A DNA stretch of 64,000 nucleotides, taken from the NCBI RefSeq assembly GCF_003334255.1, contig NZ_QOWU01000014.1. One strand, 5' to 3'. The position numbers were made by a program, and so were the translations under genes. Positions within the stretch are counted from its first letter, which is position 1; each line of letters starts with the position of its first letter. The DNA comes from Escherichia coli (GTDB lineage Bacteria; Pseudomonadota; Gammaproteobacteria; Enterobacterales; Enterobacteriaceae). Positions 10,910 through 64,000 of this stretch are shown piece by piece. The notes beneath the pieces are model-generated. The model was not told where the DNA came from. It worked only from the letters and a program-made list of their open reading frames with translations, and made no database searches.

Positions 10910-11257
10910 ATGAAAATTTCCCGCCTCGGAGAAGCGCCTGATTACCGCTTCTCGCTGGCTAATGAGCGTACTTTTCTGGCGTGGATCCGTACTGCACTAG
11001 GATTTCTGGCGGCGGGGGTTGGGCTTGATCAACTTGCGCCAGATTTCGCCACGCCCGTCATTCGCGAACTGCTGGCGTTGTTGTTGTGTCTGTTTTCCGG
11101 CGGGTTAGCGATGTATGGCTACTTGCGCTGGTTACGCAATGAAAAAGCGATGCGTCTGAAAGAGGACCTGCCCTACACCAACAGCTTATTAATCATTAGC
11201 TTAATATTGATGGTCGTGGCGGTGATCGTTATGGGACTGGTGTTGTATGCCGGATAG
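10910..11257 (+). CDS. yidH: Inner membrane protein YidH (DUF202-like)
   Basis: 115-aa ORF, membrane protein. Confidence 0.75.
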   Translation: MKISRLGEAPDYRFSLANERTFLAWIRTALGFLAAGVGLDQLAPDFATPVIRELLALLLCLFSGGLAMYGYLRWLRNEKAMRLKEDLPYTNSLLIISLILMVVAVIVMGLVLYAG

Positions 11258-13918: not shown

Positions 13919-14026
13919 ATATTTGGACAAAACGCAAACTGTGATCGATACTCAACTATGCACTAAATACGTCAAAATTCGTGCCGAAATTGCGCGTTCT
14001 GCGCGGAACACGTATACTTTCAGTGT

Positions 14027-14101
14027 TGACATAATACAGTGTGCTTTGCGGTTACCAGCCGCAGGCGACTGACGAAACCTCGCTCCGGCGGGGTTTTTTG
14101 T
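14027..14101 (+). ncRNA. istR: IstR-1 antitoxin sRNA (the longer IstR-2 would start ~65 nt upstream)
   Basis: …gttgacataatacagtgtgctttgcggttaccagccgcaggcgactgacgaaacctcgctccggcggggtttttt matches my recollection of IstR ending in its intrinsic terminator. 5' end is approximate. Confidence 0.65.
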
Positions 14102-28045: not shown

Positions 28046-28969
28046 TCACTTATGCCGCGCCGGACGATTTATTTTTCTGGCGCGGCGACGGGAATCCATT
28101 GAAATCAAAATCACCGATGACAGAATCAGCAGCGTTCCCAGCCAGTCCGGTAATGTGAACGTGATCCCCAGCAACAGCAAAGAGAGTAGCGCGCTACTTA
28201 ATGGTTCTGCACAGCTCAAAATGCTGGCTTTTGGACCGCCAATTAATTGTGCTCCTTTCAGGTACAGACTAAATGTCAGGGACGTACCAATGACCACCAA
28301 ATAAAAAAACGCCAGAATCAAACTGCCGTTAACGACAAAGTTTGTTCCTTGTCTGGCATAAAAAGGCAACAGAATCAGACCGCCAATCAGCATACTCCAG
28401 CCGACGACTGGTAACGTGCCATAGCGGGCAATTAGCGTTGAGGGATAGGTGGTATAGAATGCAGCAGCAAATGCCGAGGCAATGCCCCAGAACAACGCGG
28501 CAGGAGAGATCGATAATGACGTCGGATTACCGTGTGTCACCAATAAAAAAGTCCCGACCAGCGATGTCAAAATAGCGCAGAAAACCAGAATGCCCGGGCG
28601 CGATTTACGCACCAGTGAGAACCAGGCGACGATAATCGTCGGTGAGAGGAATTGCAGCACCGTTGCCGTGGCTGCGTTCGATTTTTCGATGGTTAGCAAA
28701 AAAGTGAGCTGTACAGTTAGCGCGCCAACCACGGAAAAAATCAGCAGGCTAATGGCATCTTTATGATTGTTAATAATAGAAAAGATTTTATCGCCATGAA
28801 CAAATGACAGCGTCAGTAGAATCAAACCGGCGAATATCAAACGCGTCATAGTCAAAAACTGCGACGACATCTGGCTTTGCTCCATGATGTATTGCGCGCA
28901 GACCCCTGAACTTCCCCACAACACGGCGGCAATCAGAACGTTCAGCATCCCCTTTCTGGTGGAACCCAT
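28046..28969 (-). CDS. yicL: EamA/DMT-family inner membrane transporter YicL
   Basis: 307-aa polytopic membrane ORF. Confidence 0.8.
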
Positions 28970-29079
28970 TTTTCCCTCTGCATACTGTTTTGTCGTTTAT
29001 GTATGCAGGCATGATAGCAAAAATGGCGAGGATGGCTCTGTTTGCGCCACGCCGATTTTTCTTAGCCCAGACTGGTGAG

Positions 29080-30264
29080 CTAAATATCTTTAATAAACAG
29101 CAGGCAAATCATCGCAATACCCAACATCCCTATCGCCAGCCAGAACAACGCATGGTAGCTCCAGATTTCAACCATAATTCCGTCAACAGAGCCGGCGATA
29201 ATCCAGCCGACGCGTGAAGTATTTGCATATAACGTTGTCGCAGAGCCTATTTTTTCAGGCATCAAGTCCTGAAAATAAAGCATGCCGATACCACAGAGAA
29301 TACCAAGGAAGATGGCATTAAGAATTTGCAATTCCAGCTCAACCGCCGGAGTCGTCGCCATGAGTACGCTGGCGTAAAAACACATTCCACTCACGATAGC
29401 AATGAGCATTAATAGTCGCTTGCCAATACGTTTCATGTAATAGCCTGCGATTAACATCATCGGAATTTCCAGACCGGCAGCGATACCAATCATTTCTCCA
29501 GCCAGTTTATCGGTTAGATGCAGTTCATCAATAATAAATAGCGGCATATTTATCATGTAGAGATTATTCGCCGCCCACATCATTGAACAGACCACAAAAA
29601 GTAGCCGCGTATCCCGCTTCCTGTGGGTGGAGGGTAAAATTTCTACGGGTTGGGTAACGACAGGAATATTTCTTTGTATTGATGGCAAAAACAACCAGAC
29701 TATCAGTCCGCAAACAACAAATGCGATGGCAGCGGTGAGATACATCACTTTAAAACTAAATCCCATTGCCAGTTCATAAGCGAGCGGTGGCCCGATAACC
29801 CAGGCAAGCGAGATCTGAGCACGTAAAAATGTACTGAACATGACCGTCTCACGGCCTGTTCTGTCGGCGTGTTCACGGGCGAGGGCGAACATTTGCGGGT
29901 TTGCGGTGGAAGCAAAACTACTCAGAAGTACGCCCGTTGAGAGGAGAATGAAGTAGTTGCGATTCCACGCAAAAAGCGTGCAGGCCAGCACTCCAAATAA
30001 GCAACATAGCAGAATCAGTAATTTACGGTCGCCTTGTTTATCGGAGTGCCTTGCCAGAAATTGACTGACCAGAATTCCCATAATAGCGCTACCGGTGAAG
30101 AAAAAACCTACCATTATAGGACGGGCTTTCAGTTCATCTGCGAGGAATATACTTAGGGTAGGAGTCTGAAGAGCGCCCGCAATACCCGTCAGAAAGGCGA
30201 CAAGTAAAAATGCCGCGGCAGTGAGATCAAGTATTTTTGATGGAGTGGTAGCCGTTTTTTGCAT
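29080..30264 (-). CDS. setC: Sugar efflux transporter SetC (MFS)
   Basis: 394-aa MFS ORF. Confidence 0.85.
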   Translation of the reverse strand: MQKTATTPSKILDLTAAAFLLVAFLTGIAGALQTPTLSIFLADELKARPIMVGFFFTGSAIMGILVSQFLARHSDKQGDRKLLILLCCLFGVLACTLFAWNRNYFILLSTGVLLSSFASTANPQMFALAREHADRTGRETVMFSTFLRAQISLAWVIGPPLAYELAMGFSFKVMYLTAAIAFVVCGLIVWLFLPSIQRNIPVVTQPVEILPSTHRKRDTRLLFVVCSMMWAANNLYMINMPLFIIDELHLTDKLAGEMIGIAAGLEIPMMLIAGYYMKRIGKRLLMLIAIVSGMCFYASVLMATTPAVELELQILNAIFLGILCGIGMLYFQDLMPEKIGSATTLYANTSRVGWIIAGSVDGIMVEIWSYHALFWLAIGMLGIAMICLLFIKDI

Positions 30265-30900
30265 TCTTCTGAATCACCGGGCGAAAAAATATAACTGAGT
30301 TACAAATAAGTACCAGTCGAATGAGTATTGTATTAAGAATTTTTGAGTATCGCTGATACAACCAGAAAGCAATGCTAGCGCAATATTATAGGGCCAGCAA
30401 TTGAGATTATTAGTAAAAGCATGTTAAGAATTAATTACCGAATTTATATATTAATTATAGTAAGGCAATGAGCTATTTTTGATAGTAAAAATAAAACAAG
30501 TTGATTTGATATATTAAATGAACAAATTAATCTTGATGGCAGTCTGATTATTGGTGAAGTTTATAGTCAGTTTTTTTCGCCAGCGGTTAAAGAAATAGAA
30601 TAGTCGTATAAAAAAGGGTGTTCTGGGGCGAGTAAAACAACATCTTCACCTTAATGGCGATACAGTTGGCTGAGAGTCAGCAGGGGGGCAAATCACCTGC
30701 AAATAAACACGGCGCATACTGGCGTGAATATCGCGGATGCGTTCGAGGACAGAAGAACCGACAGGCGGATTCTTCAGCCGCTCATCGTCCATCACAAAAC
30801 CTTAGACCAGGTATTCCTGAAGCCGATTGAATATTGAGCAGTAGAAAATATCTGGATTGACAGTATTACAAGGGGTTGGAGAACGTCAGGAGAGGCATTT

Positions 30901-30995
30901 TGGCGGAAGATCACAGGAGTCGAACCTGCCCGGGACCGCTGGCGGCCCCAACTGGATTTGAAGTCCAGCCGCCTCACCGGAGACGACGATCTTCC
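30901..30995 (-). tRNA. selC: tRNA-Sec (selenocysteine, UCA anticodon)
   Basis: Reverse complement of 30901..30995 is GGAAGATCGTCGTCTCCGGTGAGGCGGCTGGACTTCAAATCCAGTTGGGGCCGCCAGCGGTCCCGGGCAGGTTCGACTCCTGTGATCTTCCGCCA, recognised as E. coli selC. Confidence 0.9.
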
Positions 30996-31287
30996 GCGCC
31001 TCGATTGCTACATGGAGGCGGGGCGCATTATAGCTACTTCCTTGAGTTTCTACATCCCCCAGATCAGTTTTTTCCGCCTAATACACGCAGCGTATTATCA
31101 CGAAAGCATTATAGTTCATATAAAACCCATATTTTACAATGATATATGAGCGGAATTAACGCTACCACGATCACATAAAACAAGAATCATAAATTAATAA
31201 CCAGATATCGGAATATTCGCTCTCACAGGGATGGTTTACAAAATGCGTTATCGGTCTCAGCACCCCTATAGCATCAAGGAAAAGCAG

Positions 31288-32670
31288 ATGAAGAGTGAAG
31301 TGTTGTCCGTTAAAGAGAAAATTGGTTATGGCATGGGAGACGCCGCCAGCCACATTATTTTCGATAACGTAATGTTATATATGATGTTCTTTTATACCGA
31401 TATTTTTGGCATTCCTGCCGGTTTTGTCGGAACCATGTTTTTGGTCGCTCGTGCACTGGATGCGATTTCCGATCCTTGCATGGGGTTGTTGGCCGATCGA
31501 ACGCGCTCTCGCTGGGGTAAATTTCGTCCGTGGGTACTGTTTGGCGCACTGCCATTCGGGATCGTCTGTGTACTGGCCTATAGCACGCCAGATCTCAGTA
31601 TGAACGGCAAAATGATCTATGCAGCAATTACTTACACCCTACTTACCTTACTTTATACCGTCGTCAATATCCCTTACTGCGCATTGGGTGGTGTAATCAC
31701 CAATGACCCGACTCAGCGTATCTCGCTGCAATCCTGGCGTTTTGTGCTGGCGACCGCGGGAGGCATGCTTTCTACTGTTCTGATGATGCCACTGGTTAAT
31801 TTAATTGGCGGTGATAATAAACCACTCGGTTTCCAGGGCGGTATCGCGGTCCTTTCCGTGGTGGCATTCATGATGCTGGCATTTTGTTTCTTCACCACTA
31901 AAGAACGCGTTGAAGCACCACCTACAACAACGTCTATGCGGGAAGATTTACGTGATATCTGGCAAAACGACCAGTGGCGGATTGTCGGTTTACTAACCAT
32001 TTTCAATATCCTGGCGGTGTGCGTACGCGGTGGGGCGATGATGTATTACGTCACATGGATTTTGGGCACGCCGGAAGTGTTTGTCGCTTTTCTCACCACT
32101 TATTGCGTGGGTAACCTGATTGGTTCCGCACTGGCAAAACCTCTGACCGACTGGAAATGTAAAGTCACTATCTTCTGGTGGACGAACGCCCTGCTGGCAG
32201 TGATTAGCCTCGCGATGTTCTTTGTTCCCATGCAGGCCAGCATCACTATGTTTGTCTTCATCTTCGTGATTGGTGTGTTGCATCAACTGGTGACACCTAT
32301 CCAGTGGGTAATGATGTCCGATACCGTCGACTACGGCGAGTGGTGCAATGGTAAACGCCTGACCGGGATCAGTTTTGCTGGCACGCTGTTTGTGCTCAAA
32401 CTGGGGTTGGCCTTCGGCGGCGCTCTTATCGGCTGGATGCTGGCTTATGGCGGATATGATGCGGCAGAAAAAGCGCAGAACAGCGCCACGATTAGCATCA
32501 TTATTGCGCTATTCACGATTGTTCCGGCGATCTGTTATTTGCTGAGCGCGATTATCGCTAAACGCTACTACTCACTCACGACGCACAATCTGAAAACCGT
32601 TATGGAACAGCTGGCTCAGGGTAAACGCCGTTGCCAGCAACAATTCACCTCTCAAGAAGTGCAGAACTAA
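31288..32670 (+). CDS. yicJ: GPH-family glycoside/cation symporter YicJ
   Basis: ORF 31231..32670; start at MKSEVLSVKEKIGYGMGDAASH (460 aa). Confidence 0.85.
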   Translation: MKSEVLSVKEKIGYGMGDAASHIIFDNVMLYMMFFYTDIFGIPAGFVGTMFLVARALDAISDPCMGLLADRTRSRWGKFRPWVLFGALPFGIVCVLAYSTPDLSMNGKMIYAAITYTLLTLLYTVVNIPYCALGGVITNDPTQRISLQSWRFVLATAGGMLSTVLMMPLVNLIGGDNKPLGFQGGIAVLSVVAFMMLAFCFFTTKERVEAPPTTTSMREDLRDIWQNDQWRIVGLLTIFNILAVCVRGGAMMYYVTWILGTPEVFVAFLTTYCVGNLIGSALAKPLTDWKCKVTIFWWTNALLAVISLAMFFVPMQASITMFVFIFVIGVLHQLVTPIQWVMMSDTVDYGEWCNGKRLTGISFAGTLFVLKLGLAFGGALIGWMLAYGGYDAAEKAQNSATISIIIALFTIVPAICYLLSAIIAKRYYSLTTHNLKTVMEQLAQGKRRCQQQFTSQEVQN

Positions 32671-48633: not shown

Positions 48634-49458
48634 CTATTTCTTCTCTGTAATTTTTACACTGTTTTCCAACTGCTTGATGCTGACCTGCGGGGTCGGCAAC
48701 TCCTCAGGCATGGTTCCGCCAAGTTCCTGAATGGTTTGCCTCACCTTGCGACCCACGTCAAAGTGTGTGGTGTTTGCTTGCTGTTTTGAATTCACGCCAT
48801 CCCGCTTGAGTTTTTCTTCTGTTTGGGTAGCTCGAAAGAGATTAGCCGCCAGTTCTGTTGAACCCATATGATCCAGGATCTTCTGATTCTTTTTCAGCCC
48901 CTTCCGCTGATGAATAGCTTTCTGATCTAATCCACCATACAGCCCCCGGTAACCATGATTCTGAAATATGGCGAAATCGATAGCTGTCGCTCCCCCAGCT
49001 TGCTGCGCTGCCTCAACCAATTGTTTGTTATGTTCTTTCAATTCATTTCTCAGAAAAAGACGCTTTTCGTCTTCACGAAGTTGCCTGAAAGCTTCATCGT
49101 CAGCCAGCTCCTGCCGTCGGGTCTGGATAGCAAAATAAGTTTGCCCTGCCGCAATAACCGGTTTCGCAGGGTCGCCGTTTTGTACTACCAGGTAACAGGC
49201 ATAGCGGGAGAGATGAACATCTTCAAGTTCTCGTTGAGCCCCTGAACCTAATACAACCATTTTGGTGGTTTCAACGAAATGGTCAGATGCAGCTTGATTG
49301 CTGGCTTCGCACGCTTGAGTCGCGCGGGCCAGTACCTTTTGAAAATTGCGCCAGTCCCGATAATCCAGTAACGGTGCCAATTCTCTAGCTGACCAAAATT
49401 CTTGCCCTTCAGTGCCATAATGCCGTATTTCTTCAAAAGGTTGATGATGTTCGTTCAT
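48634..49458 (-). CDS. dinD: DNA-damage-inducible protein D
   Basis: ORF 48634..49470 minus; start at MNEHHQPFEEIRHYGTEGQEFW. LexA box lies upstream. Confidence 0.85.
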   Translation of the reverse strand: MNEHHQPFEEIRHYGTEGQEFWSARELAPLLDYRDWRNFQKVLARATQACEASNQAASDHFVETTKMVVLGSGAQRELEDVHLSRYACYLVVQNGDPAKPVIAAGQTYFAIQTRRQELADDEAFRQLREDEKRLFLRNELKEHNKQLVEAAQQAGGATAIDFAIFQNHGYRGLYGGLDQKAIHQRKGLKKNQKILDHMGSTELAANLFRATQTEEKLKRDGVNSKQQANTTHFDVGRKVRQTIQELGGTMPEELPTPQVSIKQLENSVKITEKK

Positions 49459-49501
49459 TGCCCACTCCATGTGATATCGATTGCAAAGAAAGTAAATCTG
49501 T

Positions 49502-56914: not shown

Positions 56915-58679
<1,765 letters not shown>

Positions 58680-59050
58680 AGTAAATAGCTGACTTATGGA
58701 TGTGCTGGGGATTCTATGTATTTAGCTGTGGCTTTACCATTACTTTTCCCGTTTTTGACTTAAATAGCAATTTACCCGCCAATTCTTGCTGAACATCTAT
58801 ACTTTTTTTGTATTTTTATGCGATTCATTGATTTCTGCTGTACGTGCAGGAAGGAATCGCAGAGCAACAGTGAAAGAATATGGTTGCTAATGATTTTATT
58901 TGATTGATTTCTTTATTGAAAATCAACAATGTGCTTAAAAATCATTCGGGTCGGATTGCCGCGAAAGAAGTGATACACTAGCGCGTCAATATCAGTGCGG
59001 TATCAGTATTCAGGTAGCTGTTGAGCCTGGGGCGGTAGCGTGCTTTTTCT

Positions 59051-59062
59051 GCTTCACCTTAA
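59051..59062 (+). promoter_or_regulatory. ops element within a JUMPstart-like sequence upstream of waaQ
   Basis: GGCGGTAGCGTG, exact match to the ops motif as I recall it, in the 5' leader of the waaQ operon. Confidence 0.6.
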
Positions 59063-59091
59063 TCGGATAATCTCAACAAAAAGAGTTACTT

Positions 59092-60150
59092 GTGGATAAG
59101 CCATTTCGAAGAATTTTGCTCATTAAGATGCGTTTTCATGGGGATATGTTATTAACTACTCCCGTCATTAGTTCGCTGAAAAAAAATTACCCTGACGCAA
59201 AAATCGATGTGCTGCTTTATCAGGACACCATCCCGATCCTGTCTGAAAATCCAGAGATTAACGCGCTCTACGGCATAAAAAATAAAAAAGCAAAAGCCTC
59301 AGAAAAAATTGCCAACTTTTTTCATCTCATCAAGGTATTACGTGCCAATAAGTATGACCTTATCGTCAATCTTACCGATCAATGGATGGTTGCTATACTG
59401 GTTCGCTTATTAAATGCTCGTGTGAAAATTTCCCAGGATTATCATCATCGGCAGTCTGCTTTTTGGCGTAAAAGTTTCACCCATTTGGTGCCGTTGCAGG
59501 GTGGAAATGTGGTGGAAAGTAACTTATCCGTGCTGACACCATTGGGACTTGATTCGTTGGTGAAGCAGACAACCATGAGTTACCCGCCTGCAAGCTGGAA
59601 ACGTATGCGTCGCGAACTTGATCACGCTGGTGTTGGACAAAATTATGTGGTTATCCAACCTACGGCGCGGCAAATCTTCAAATGCTGGGACAACGCCAAG
59701 TTTTCCGCTGTGATTGATGCCTTACATGCTAGTGGTTATGAAGTCGTTCTGACGTCCGGCCCGGATAAAGACGATCTGGCCTGCGTCAATGAAATTGCGC
59801 AGGGATGCCAGACGCCACCAGTAACGGCGCTGGCTGGAAAGGTGACCTTCCCGGAACTTGGTGCGTTAATCGATCATGCGCAGCTGTTTATTGGCGTTGA
59901 TTCCGCACCGGCGCATATTGCCGCTGCAGTTAATACGCCGCTGATATCGCTGTTTGGTGCGACAGACCATATTTTCTGGCGTCCCTGGTCAAATAACATG
60001 ATTCAATTCTGGGCGGGAGATTACCGGGAAATGCCAACGCGCGATCAGCGTGACCGAAATGAGATGTATCTTTCGGTTATTCCGGCGGCAGATGTCATTG
60101 CTGCTGTCGATAAATTACTGCCCTTCTCCACGACAGGTACGTCGTTATGA
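59092..60150 (+). CDS. waaQ: LPS core heptosyltransferase III (GT9)
   Basis: ORF with non-ATG start at 59092; true start may be 59116 or the ATG at 59128. Product matches WaaQ. Confidence 0.8.
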   Translation: MDKPFRRILLIKMRFHGDMLLTTPVISSLKKNYPDAKIDVLLYQDTIPILSENPEINALYGIKNKKAKASEKIANFFHLIKVLRANKYDLIVNLTDQWMVAILVRLLNARVKISQDYHHRQSAFWRKSFTHLVPLQGGNVVESNLSVLTPLGLDSLVKQTTMSYPPASWKRMRRELDHAGVGQNYVVIQPTARQIFKCWDNAKFSAVIDALHASGYEVVLTSGPDKDDLACVNEIAQGCQTPPVTALAGKVTFPELGALIDHAQLFIGVDSAPAHIAAAVNTPLISLFGATDHIFWRPWSNNMIQFWAGDYREMPTRDQRDRNEMYLSVIPAADVIAAVDKLLPFSTTGTSL

Positions 60151-61271
60151 TCGTTGCTTTTTGTTTATATAAATATTTTCCCTTTGGCGGTTTGCAGCGC
60201 GATTTTATGCGTATTGCTCAGACAGTCGCCGCCCGAGGTCATCATGTTCGGGTTTATACCCAGTCGTGGGAAGGCGAATGCCCTGATGTATTTGAACTGA
60301 TCAAAGTGCCGGTTAAATCGCATACCAATCACGGGCGCAATGCGGAGTATTTTACCTGGGTGCAAAAACATTTACGCGAACATCCCGTCGATAAAGTCGT
60401 TGGATTCAACAAAATGCCGGGGCTGGACGTTTATTATGCCGCTGATGTTTGTTATGCCGAGAAAGTAGCGCAGGAGAAAGGCTTTTTCTATCGCCTGACG
60501 TCACGTTATCGCCATTATGCCGCCTTTGAGCGGGCAACCTTCGAACAGGGCAAGCCGACACAGCTGCTGATGCTGACAGATAAGCAAATCGCCGATTTCC
60601 AGAAACATTATCAGACTGAAGCGGAGCGTTTTCATATTCTGCCACCGGGGATTTATCCTGATCGTAAATATAGCCAGCAGCCAGCCAATAGCCGTGAAAT
60701 CTTCCGTAAGAAGAATGGAATAACCGAACAACAATATTTATTGTTGCAGGTCGGTTCAGACTTCACGCGTAAAGGTGTCGATCGTTCCATTGAAGCACTT
60801 GCTTCTTTACCGGATTCGCTGCGCCACAACACATTGCTATATGTTGTTGGGCAGGATAAACCGCGAAAATTTGAGGCGCTGGCAGAAAAACGCGGCGTGC
60901 GCAGTAATGTTCACTTCTTCTCGGGGCGCAATGATGTCTCGGAATTAATGGCGGCGGCGGATTTATTACTGCATCCTGCCTACCAGGAAGCGGCGGGAAT
61001 TGTGCTGCTGGAAGCGATTACTGCAGGATTACCGGTACTAACAACAGCCGTTTGTGGCTATGCGCCTTATATTGTCGAGGCCAATTGCGGCGAGGCTATT
61101 GCTGAGCCATTCCGCCAGGAAACATTGAATGAGATTTTACGCAAAGCGTTAACGCAATCTTCATTGCGCCAGGCCTGGGCGGAAAATGCGCGACATTATG
61201 CTGATACACAAGATTTATACAGTCTGCCAGAGAAAGCGGCGGATATCATAACGGGTGGTCTGGATGGTTGA
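60147..61271 (+). CDS. waaG: LPS core glucosyltransferase I (GT4)
   Basis: 374-aa [46 protein letters not shown]. Confidence 0.9.
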
Positions 61272-62061
61272 ACTTAAAGAGCCGTTTGCCACGTTATGGC
61301 GCGGTAAAGATCCTTTTGAGGAAGTTAAAACCTTGCAGGGTGAGATATTTCGTGAACTGGAAACTCGCCGTACTCTGCGCTTTGAAATGGCGGGAAAAAG
61401 CTATTTTCTCAAATGGCATCGCGGCACGACCCTGAAAGAGATAATCAAAAATTTACTCTCATTGCGGATGCCAGTATTAGGCGCAGACCGCGAATGGAAT
61501 GCGATTCATCGACTGCGGGATGTCGGCGTTGATACTATGTATGGGGTGGCATTCGGCGAAAAAGGCATGAATCCGCTGACCAGAACCTCGTTTATTATTA
61601 CCGAAGATCTGACACCAACCATAAGTCTGGAAGATTACTGTGCTGACTGGGCGACCAACCCACCAGATGTTCGCGTAAAGCGTATGCTTATTAAGCGTGT
61701 CGCGACGATGGTGCGCGATATGCATGCTGCGGGCATTAATCACCGTGACTGTTATATCTGTCATTTCCTGCTGCACTTGCCTTTTTCCGGTAAGGAAGAG
61801 GAGTTAAAAATTTCGGTAATTGACCTGCACCGGGCGCAGCTTCGCACGCGCGTTCCACGTCGTTGGCGCGATAAAGATCTTATTGGACTTTATTTTTCTT
61901 CGATGAATATTGGCCTGACTCAGCGGGATATCTGGCGGTTTATGAAGGTGTATTTTGCCGCTCCGCTTAAAGACATTCTCAAGCAGGAACAAGGACTGCT
62001 GTTGCAAGCAGAAGCAAAAGCCACAAAAATCAGGGAAAGAACGATTCGAAAATCGTTGTAA
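61264..62061 (+). CDS. waaP: LPS core heptose(I) kinase
   Basis: ORF 61255..62061; start at [20 protein letters not shown]. Confidence 0.85.
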
Positions 62062-62103
62062 CCCGTAACTTATTTTTGCCAAAATTTTGGATACAGAATA
62101 AAT

Positions 62104-63111
62104 ATGTCTCAACTCAATGATAGTGACATCATCCTTTTTGAGTATAATTTTCATTATCAAAATATAAGATCTAAAAATACTCTTGATATAGCATTTGGTA
62201 TTGACAGAAATTTTCTTTTTGGATGTGGTGTAGCCATCGCATCTATTCTATTAAACAATAGAGAAATCTCTTGTGAATTTCATGTTTTCACAGATTATAT
62301 CAGTGATAAAGACAAATTATATTTTTCTGATTTAGCAAAACAATATAATTCAAGAATTAATATTTATGTTATCAATTGTGATAAGCTGAAGTCATTACCA
62401 AGCACGAAAAACTGGACTTACGCAACATATTTTCGATTTATAATTGCAGATTATTTCTATCATAAACATGAAAAAATACTATATCTTGATGCAGATATTG
62501 CTTGCAAGGGTAGTATTAAAGAACTCTTAGATTATCAATTTTCTACTAATGAAATTGCCGCAGTTGTAGCTGAAAGAGATGTTGAATGGTGGCAAAATCG
62601 AGCCTCGGTATTAACTACACCACAGTTAGCTTCTGGATATTTCAATGCTGGTTTTTTACTGATAAATATTGATGAGTGGAATCTAAATAACATTTCGTCA
62701 AAAGCTATTGAAATGTTGCGTGACCCAGATTGGGTAAGTAAAATCACCCACCTTGATCAAGATGTACTGAATGTATTATTGAATGGTAAAGTGAAGTTTA
62801 TTTCGGAGAAATATAATACCCGATATAGTATTAACTATGAATTAAAAGACAAAGTTGATAATCCAGTCAATGATGACACCGTGTTTATACACTATGTGGG
62901 ACCTACAAAACCCTGGCATGAGTGGGCTGACTATCCGGTGTCACGTAGTTTTTTGATCGCCAAAGCAGCTTCTCCGTGGAGTAAAGAAGATTTACTTAAA
63001 CCTGTAAATAGCAATCAGTATCGGTATTGTGCAAAACATAAATTTAAACAAAAGCATTATATGGCAGGCATTTTTAATTATTTAAAGTATTATAAAGAAA
63101 AATGCTTCTAA
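62104..63111 (+). CDS. LPS outer-core alpha-1,3-glycosyltransferase, GT8 family (WaaI/WaaO-like)
   Basis: 335-aa ORF with GT8 N-terminal pattern …LDIAFGIDRNFLFGCGVAIASIL… and DxD region. AT-rich. Confidence 0.7.
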   Translation: MSQLNDSDIILFEYNFHYQNIRSKNTLDIAFGIDRNFLFGCGVAIASILLNNREISCEFHVFTDYISDKDKLYFSDLAKQYNSRINIYVINCDKLKSLPSTKNWTYATYFRFIIADYFYHKHEKILYLDADIACKGSIKELLDYQFSTNEIAAVVAERDVEWWQNRASVLTTPQLASGYFNAGFLLINIDEWNLNNISSKAIEMLRDPDWVSKITHLDQDVLNVLLNGKVKFISEKYNTRYSINYELKDKVDNPVNDDTVFIHYVGPTKPWHEWADYPVSRSFLIAKAASPWSKEDLLKPVNSNQYRYCAKHKFKQKHYMAGIFNYLKYYKEKCF

Positions 63112-63136
63112 AGATTTAAGGTTAAAATAATTCATT

Positions 63137-63844
63137 ATGATATATAATAAAACGATAAATGGGTTGAAAGTTTTCATAAAAGATAATGATCCCTTTTATG
63201 AGCAAGTTCTAAATGACTTTTTAACTTGCAGGGTTAAAACATTAAAAGTTTTTCGTTCTATTGATGATACTAAAGTCATTCTTATTGACACTGCTCGTGG
63301 ACCTCTTGTACTTAAAGTTTATGCGCCAAAGCATAAAATGACCGAACGTTTCTTAAAATCTTGCATAAAAAAAGATTATTATGAAAATTTAATTTATCAA
63401 ACCGATCGGGTACGTGGTGAAGGCATCCAATCAATTAATGACTATTTTTTGCTAGCTGAACGTAAAACATTAAATTTCGCTCATTATTATATTATGCTCA
63501 TTGAGTATATTGAAGGTGTCGGGTTAAATGAGTATTTGGAAATTTCTGAAGATCTGAAGGATCAATTATCAGAATCGATAAAAGAGTTGCATCAGCATGG
63601 AATGGTGTCTGGCGATCCTCATAAAGGAAATTTTATAGTATCCGAAAAAGGTTTAAGACTAATTGACCTTTCAGGTAAAAAAACAACCGCTGTTTTAAAA
63701 GCAAAAGATCGCATTGATCTTGAACGGCACTATAATATAAAAAATGAATTGAAAGACTTTGGCTATACATATCTTATATTCAAAAAGAAAATTAAAAAAG
63801 TAATCAGGGATGTAAAAGTCAAACTAGGATTGAAGAGCAAATAA
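63137..63844 (+). CDS. waaY: LPS core heptose(II) kinase, WaaY-like
   Basis: 235-aa ORF with kinase-like …LHQHGMVSGDPHKGNFIV…IDLSGK… resembling WaaY. AT-rich. Confidence 0.75.
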   Translation: MIYNKTINGLKVFIKDNDPFYEQVLNDFLTCRVKTLKVFRSIDDTKVILIDTARGPLVLKVYAPKHKMTERFLKSCIKKDYYENLIYQTDRVRGEGIQSINDYFLLAERKTLNFAHYYIMLIEYIEGVGLNEYLEISEDLKDQLSESIKELHQHGMVSGDPHKGNFIVSEKGLRLIDLSGKKTTAVLKAKDRIDLERHYNIKNELKDFGYTYLIFKKKIKKVIRDVKVKLGLKSK

Positions 63845-63868
63845 TGATTATGATGAAGGGTAATTAAA

Positions 63869-64000
63869 TTGGATTTTAAACATCTTACTCAATTTAAAGA
63901 TATAATTGAACTGGACAAGCGCCCCGTTAAACTTGATGAACGGGAAACGTTTAATGTCTCATGGGGTATTGATGAGAACTACCAGGTTGGGGCTGCGATT
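63869..64000 (+). CDS. Second GT8-family LPS outer-core glycosyltransferase, 5' part only (runs out of window)
   Basis: Frame from 63869 gives …ETFNVSWGIDENYQVGAAI, a GT8 N-terminal motif. No ATG in frame, so the start is uncertain. Confidence 0.45.
   Translation, partial: MDFKHLTQFKDIIELDKRPVKLDERETFNVSWGIDENYQVGAAI

Follow-up and report, generated by a model that had tools for sequence, protein, structure and literature searches.

We analyzed a window of 64,000 nucleotides from Escherichia coli (contig NZ_QOWU01000014.1, assembly GCF_003334255.1) and found the block at its right end, positions 62104–64000, to belong to the E. coli R3 waa locus: it is the promoter-proximal end of the cassette specific to that core type, with waaI, waaY, and the first codons of waaJ; we put the probability of this reading at about 0.96. 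The strain is typed as R3 for its lipopolysaccharide (LPS) core, a type it shares with O157:H7, Shigella flexneri 2a, and ~25% of complete E. coli genomes. The locus is already known, its genes are the standard R3 core genes, and it holds no new biology: the block is real but ordinary, as it is identical to the O157:H7 locus and roughly one in four sequenced E. coli carries it.

The list of open reading frames contained a complete frame of 335 aa at 62104–63111 (+), right after waaQ-waaG-waaP, a second complete frame of 235 aa at 63137–63844 (+), and a third frame that opens with a TTG at 63869 and is still open where the window stops, with 44 codons (132 nt) visible. A reading made earlier from the sequence only had described a GT8 glycosyltransferase, a WaaY-like kinase, and the start of a second GT8 gene after waaQ-waaG-waaP; the frames lie where it had placed them, and the Pfam domains agree. 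Farther upstream, waaA is on the minus strand, ahead of the JUMPstart leader and waaQ-waaG-waaP. The features of the region are as follows:

59004–59042, + strand: JUMPstart (ops-containing) leader upstream of waaQ (Rfam RF01707, 55.2 bits against a gathering threshold of 35, E 6.4e-10)
59092–60150, + strand: waaQ, heptosyltransferase III, R1/R3/R4-type allele (open reading frame; RefSeq rfaQ at the same position in CP53)
60147–61271, + strand: waaG, glucosyltransferase I, adding Glc I (open reading frame, CP53; 4-nt overlap with waaQ, 8-nt overlap with waaP)
61264–62061, + strand: waaP, heptose I kinase (open reading frame, CP53), the last gene of the block common to R1 and R4 strains
62062–62103, no strand: waaP-waaI spacer of 42 nt, with which the type-specific AT-rich cassette begins (blastn breakpoint 62061/62062)
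62104–63111, + strand: waaI, GT8 UDP-galactose:(glucosyl) LPS alpha-1,3-galactosyltransferase (identity to the R3 protein; Pfam, NCBIfam)
63137–63844, + strand: waaY, heptose II kinase, R3 allele (Pfam, NCBIfam, identity to O157:H7)
63869–64000, + strand: waaJ (5' part), the second GT8 gene (44 aa, 100% identical to R3 WaaJ WP_000346017.1)

The waaJ start at 63869 is the RefSeq CDS start mapped from the 100%-identical CP53 record, and a published S. flexneri waaJ deletion primer, starting at 63872, agrees with it. At the waaY-waaJ junction we noted a mini-ORF of seven codons (63844–63871; ATG ATT ATG ATG AAG GGT AAT TAA); its ATG overlaps the waaY stop (TAATG), and its TAA falls 1 nt short of the waaJ TTG. 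The AAGG within it may act as the ribosome-binding site of waaJ. A scan of 58600–64000 returned fewer sites than shuffled sequence did, with 10 promoter-like sites against a mean of 14.8 and 2 terminator-like sites against a mean of 5.1; it was uninformative and gave no hint that transcription starts or stops inside the region as a separate unit.

For the comparison of gene order, we fetched one or more examples of each core type, each typed in silico with published primers. The genes following waaP are:

K-12 (MG1655): waaS-waaB-waaO-waaJ-waaY-waaZ-waaU
R2 (ETEC1706): waaS-waaB-waaO-waaJ-waaY-waaZ-waaK
R1 (PBP8, Ec-042-T20, 2015-01-2097): waaO-waaT-waaY-waaW-waaV-waaL
R4 (Z142-2): waaO-waaT-waaY-waaW-waaX (GT25)-waaL
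R3 (CP53, O157:H7, G6/7): waaI-waaY-waaJ-waaD, then convergent waaL-waaC-waaF-hldD

Among these examples of the five types, the arrangement waaP-GT8-waaY-GT8, with just one GT8 gene separating waaP from waaY, is confined to R3. The window, with waaP-waaI-waaY-waaJ, carries neither waaS/waaB nor a second GT8 gene ahead of waaY and has the R3 order. The sequence-only reading had stated that K-12 carries waaS and waaB after waaP and that the arrangement in the window fits R3; MG1655 does have that order, and since only R3 has one GT8 gene between waaP and waaY, both statements proved correct.

The change in base composition was as sharp as had been noticed, falling at about 62.1 kb from a G+C content of 0.467 in waaQ, 0.484 in waaG, and 0.471 in waaP to 0.313 in 62104–64000, against 0.509 for the whole window. 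The fall begins at the same point as a break in homology. Over 58600–62061, the DNA is 99.3% identical to an R1 strain and 98.9% to an R4 strain; in blastn alignments this homology stops exactly where waaP does, at the final stop-codon base 62061, and to the right of it no more than three patches align, at 67–72% DNA identity. In CP53, the AT-rich segment (G+C 0.31–0.37) extends through waaJ, waaD, and waaL, and waaC is back at 0.50. Because the identity to R1 and R4 collapses at the waaP stop codon, the data support the earlier idea of an exchangeable outer-core cassette of foreign base composition, for which we infer a horizontal origin.

Protein comparisons of the kind that the sequence-only reading had proposed placed the block with R3. 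WaaI is 100% identical to the proteins of O157:H7 (strain 2571) and CP53, all three being the same RefSeq protein (WP_000080643.1), and the pairwise amino acid alignments give 55% to WaaO of K-12 and 55% to WaaO of R1; the R2 example, in which waaO is frameshifted, was left out of this comparison. WaaY is 99.6% identical to its O157:H7 counterpart, 56% to that of K-12, 52% to that of R1, and 58% to that of R2. The first 44 residues of WaaJ match O157:H7 at 100% and K-12 and R2 each at ~41% over 32 aa, the R1 comparison not being meaningful. The R4 example was compared at the DNA level.

At the nucleotide level, 62000–64000 is 100% identical in many E. coli chromosomes, where the genes are annotated as waaO/"lipopolysaccharide 3-alpha-galactosyltransferase," rfaY, and "UDP-glucose--(galactosyl) LPS alpha1,2-glucosyltransferase." The R3 prototype F653 was the basis for three recombineering arms of 80 nt (PMC9927288), which align with 0 mismatches at 62027–62106 (the waaI-up arm), 63091–63170, and 63786–63865; three primers for S. 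flexneri 2457T also match the window perfectly. According to Trofimova et al. 2025 (PMC13293308), R3 is typed by the primers R3-R and R3-F with a product of 1,021 bp. R3-R matches exactly at 63953–63975, within waaJ, while the site of R3-F, in waaD, would fall beyond 64000; in the CP53 locus both primers find their sites, starting at 10954 on one strand and 11955 on the other, a spacing that fits the published product. The F653 arms and the R3-R primer provide two links to R3 that are independent of database annotation.

Family models agree with these identities. The waaI product contains both GT8 domains at full length (Pfam Glyco_transf_8, PF01501, 1.9e-73, residues 29–275; Glyco_transf_8C, PF08437, 7.9e-21, residues 277–333) together with the DxD motif, confirming its GT8 membership, and the waaY product matches the Pfam model WaaY (PF06176, 1.9e-93) over residues 1–229, the full length of the 229-position model, and the NCBIfam equivalog NF007684 with 390.5 bits against a cut-off of 248. 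We dropped NCBIfam NF011718 ("3-alpha-galactosyltransferase") as proof of WaaI identity: WaaI scores 619.6 bits against the cut-off of 461, but the genes annotated as WaaO in K-12 (581.8 bits) and R1 (612 bits), at L002 9040–10059 and L004 7823–8839 in the fetched loci, pass as well, and the MG1655 record names WaaO a glucosyltransferase. RefSeq gives the label "waaO: lipopolysaccharide 3-alpha-galactosyltransferase" alike to R3 WaaI, K-12 WaaO, and R1 WaaO. As the K-12 and R1 proteins pass the cut-off, neither the model nor the RefSeq name fixes the donor sugar, and the donor specificity of WaaI is therefore taken solely from identity to the R3 protein and from published mutants. In R3, the ΔwaaI mutant lost the HexII galactose, and the ΔwaaI and ΔwaaJ mutants together assign the HexII galactose to WaaI and the HexIII glucose to WaaJ (PMC9927288).

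The R3 genes sit in a chromosome that is otherwise close to K-12. Bases 1–77 of the window match, at 100% identity, the 77 nt at the end of the CP53 copy of IS1, and homology to K-12 starts at about base 75–78, inside ibpA (K-12 coordinate 3867142), so that ibpA is apparently interrupted by IS1. From there, bases 78–47000 differ from MG1655 at 7 positions. From ~47351 (ligB/yicG), the differences rise to 3–26 per kb and then up to 217–289 per kb in waaQGP (22–29%); the R3 waa genes thus lie in a non-K-12 tract of at least 16.6 kb on a K-12-like backbone. The small number of differences over 78–47000 had suggested an engineered K-12 derivative with an R3 core. We dropped this explanation, as several natural isolates have exactly the same arrangement, with 100% identity to the window over 40000–64000; G6/7, G8, B-1109, and MB06232 are isolates of this kind, and the sources of such isolates include human feces, pigs, seawater, and sewage.

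Several other features of the window were recorded along the way. At 49201–49500, near dinD/yicC, a hypervariable patch differs from K-12 by ~96 changes in 300 bp, far above its surroundings. The island-integration site at selC (tRNA-Sec, 30905–30995, minus strand; region 30051–30995) is unoccupied, with setC intact at 29080–30264 (minus strand) and the selC/setC region (28217–32000) 99.97% identical to K-12; at the same site, CP53 has IS1 and an integrase remnant, and its setC is truncated. The istR small RNA (13970–14099; Rfam RF01400, 150 bits) adjoins the tisB toxin locus, as it does in K-12.

Other core types were considered for the block. The near identity to MG1655 over 78–47000 could suggest a K-12 or R2 locus. 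In both of these, however, waaP is separated from the first GT8 core gene by waaS and waaB, and the similarity is low even in the shared genes: waaQGP have 76% DNA identity and 73–90% amino acid identity (to K-12, 73% for WaaQ, 89.6% for WaaG, and 83.8% for WaaP). A K-12 waaY primer found no match in the window even with 3 mismatches permitted. Gene order and low identity refute this assignment, and its probability is negligible. An R1 or R4 locus agrees with the left part of the region, where the DNA runs at ~99% identity to 62061 and the WaaQ, WaaG, and WaaP proteins are 98.5–99.4% identical to R1 strains. Gene by gene, WaaQ is 99.4% identical to O157:H7 and to the R1 strain alike, WaaG 98.9–99.2% to O157:H7 and R1 strains, and WaaP 98.5–99.6% to R3 and R1 strains. 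Past waaP, R1 and R4 continue as waaP-waaO-waaT-waaY, with two GT8 genes before waaY where the window has one; the R1 proteins fall to ~55% (WaaO against WaaI) and 52% (WaaY), and the DNA of both types aligns only in the low-identity patches. Order and identity beyond waaP thus refute R1 and R4 as well, and we give them next to no weight.

A further alternative starts from the end of the window at 64000, with the downstream genes beyond it: the R3-type waaI-waaY-waaJ' might be joined to a non-R3 terminal transferase or ligase, making a hitherto undescribed hybrid in a K-12-like backbone. Hybrid waa loci do exist, R2/K-12 hybrids having been reported in 2025, but the passages of that report consulted mention no R3 hybrids (PMC13293308). 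The population data also argue against it. The block is carried by 1364 of 5426 complete E. coli genomes (~25%) at a coverage of at least 80%, and a waaJ-waaD-waaL query taken from CP53 found 1364 genomes, all covering at least 80% of the query and none matching partially; the two counts are equal, although equality is no strict proof that the genome sets are the same. The sequence of strain G6/7 is identical over 40000–64000 and goes on with the standard R3 end, waaJ-waaD followed by convergent waaL-waaC-waaF-hldD. The equal counts and the G6/7 order make a hybrid end very unlikely, though less remote than the other core types.

The preferred reading, a standard R3 locus, extends beyond the window by linkage. 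As waaD and waaL both lie past 64000, the R3 call rests on linkage for these two genes: waaD and the R3-type convergent waaL (hldD-waaF-waaC-waaL operon) are present in CP53, O157:H7, and G6/7, and both are probably present in this genome. The downstream check on waaD and waaL that the sequence-only reading had proposed was thereby answered in genomes identical to the window. For WaaD, annotation and literature are at odds (GlcNAc vs. glucose). RefSeq names the R3 protein (L001 11892–13034, outside the window) "lipopolysaccharide N-acetylglucosaminyltransferase" (subfamily NF012028, 770 bits), and WaaD has been assumed to add GlcNAc (PMC3184986); elsewhere it is described as a glucosyltransferase acting on HexIII, with Kaniuk 2004 cited (PMC9927288).

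Identity to the genetically studied R3 proteins suggests specificities for WaaI, WaaY, and WaaJ and a path by which the locus would build the core. As part of the waaQ operon, the block would be read from the leader at ~59.0 kb, upstream of waaQ, which carries JUMPstart and depends on RfaH. The antiterminator RfaH is recruited at JUMPstart/ops and drives transcription through the long waaQ operon. WaaG would put Glc I on heptose II, after which WaaI would add an alpha-1,3 galactose as the second hexose (HexII) of the R3 outer core and WaaJ an alpha-1,2 glucose as the third backbone hexose (HexIII). This HexIII glucose is reportedly the site of O-antigen attachment, a finding attributed to Kaniuk et al. 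in 2004. WaaD would add a glucose substituent to HexIII, and core completion and O-antigen ligation would fall to waaD and waaL, just past the window. The side branch of the full R3 core, GlcNAc on HexII, is said to have been traced in the same 2004 work of Kaniuk et al. to wabB, encoded outside the waa locus. In the inner core, WaaY would phosphorylate heptose II once WaaP and WaaQ have done their part; the order of heptose-region modification, WaaP, then WaaQ, then WaaY, was reportedly established by Yethon et al. in 1998.

Typing the strain as R3 is useful for predicting core-specific phage receptors, the O-antigen ligation site, and antibody reactivity, and consequences of the core type for phage reception and serum, which the sequence-only reading had also drawn, may be expected. 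With a first 47 kb that is near-K-12 (7 differences) and an R3 core, the strain would offer a natural near-isogenic comparison for the effects of core type.

Among solved structures, the closest to WaaI by sequence is Neisseria LgtC, a GT8 alpha-1,4-galactosyltransferase (PDB 1g9r/1ga8; E 9e-18 for 1g9r). The metal/nucleotide-sugar motif LYLDxD aligns (LYLDADI in WaaI, LYLDIDV in LgtC), as does the C-terminal HYxGxxKPW motif, but LgtC is a distant relative with another acceptor and linkage and without the Glyco_transf_8C tail of the Waa GT8 enzymes. The K-12 and R2 loci share with the window the JUMPstart, waaQ-waaG-waaP, and outer-core genes including waaY, and they have the convergent waaL-waaC-waaF-hldD operon; they differ in having waaS and waaB after waaP, in placing waaY behind two GT8 genes and ahead of waaZ and then waaU or waaK, and in the divergence of waaQGP themselves (73–90% at the amino acid level). 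In the R1 and R4 loci, waaA-waaQ-waaG-waaP is ~99% identical in DNA as far as the end of waaP, and the GT8 and WaaY families are homologous, but in these loci waaY is preceded by waaO and waaT and followed by waaW, then waaV or waaX, and waaL on the same strand, and the R1 homologues are only 52–55% identical to the type-specific proteins of the window. O157:H7 differs in its backbone, that of the window being K-12-like (phylogroup A-like) and not of the O157:H7 lineage. From the R3 locus itself, as known from F653, O157:H7, and Shigella flexneri 2a, we found no difference in the visible part, waaD and waaL lying outside the window, and the order waaQ-waaG-waaP-waaI-waaY-waaJ' is the same.
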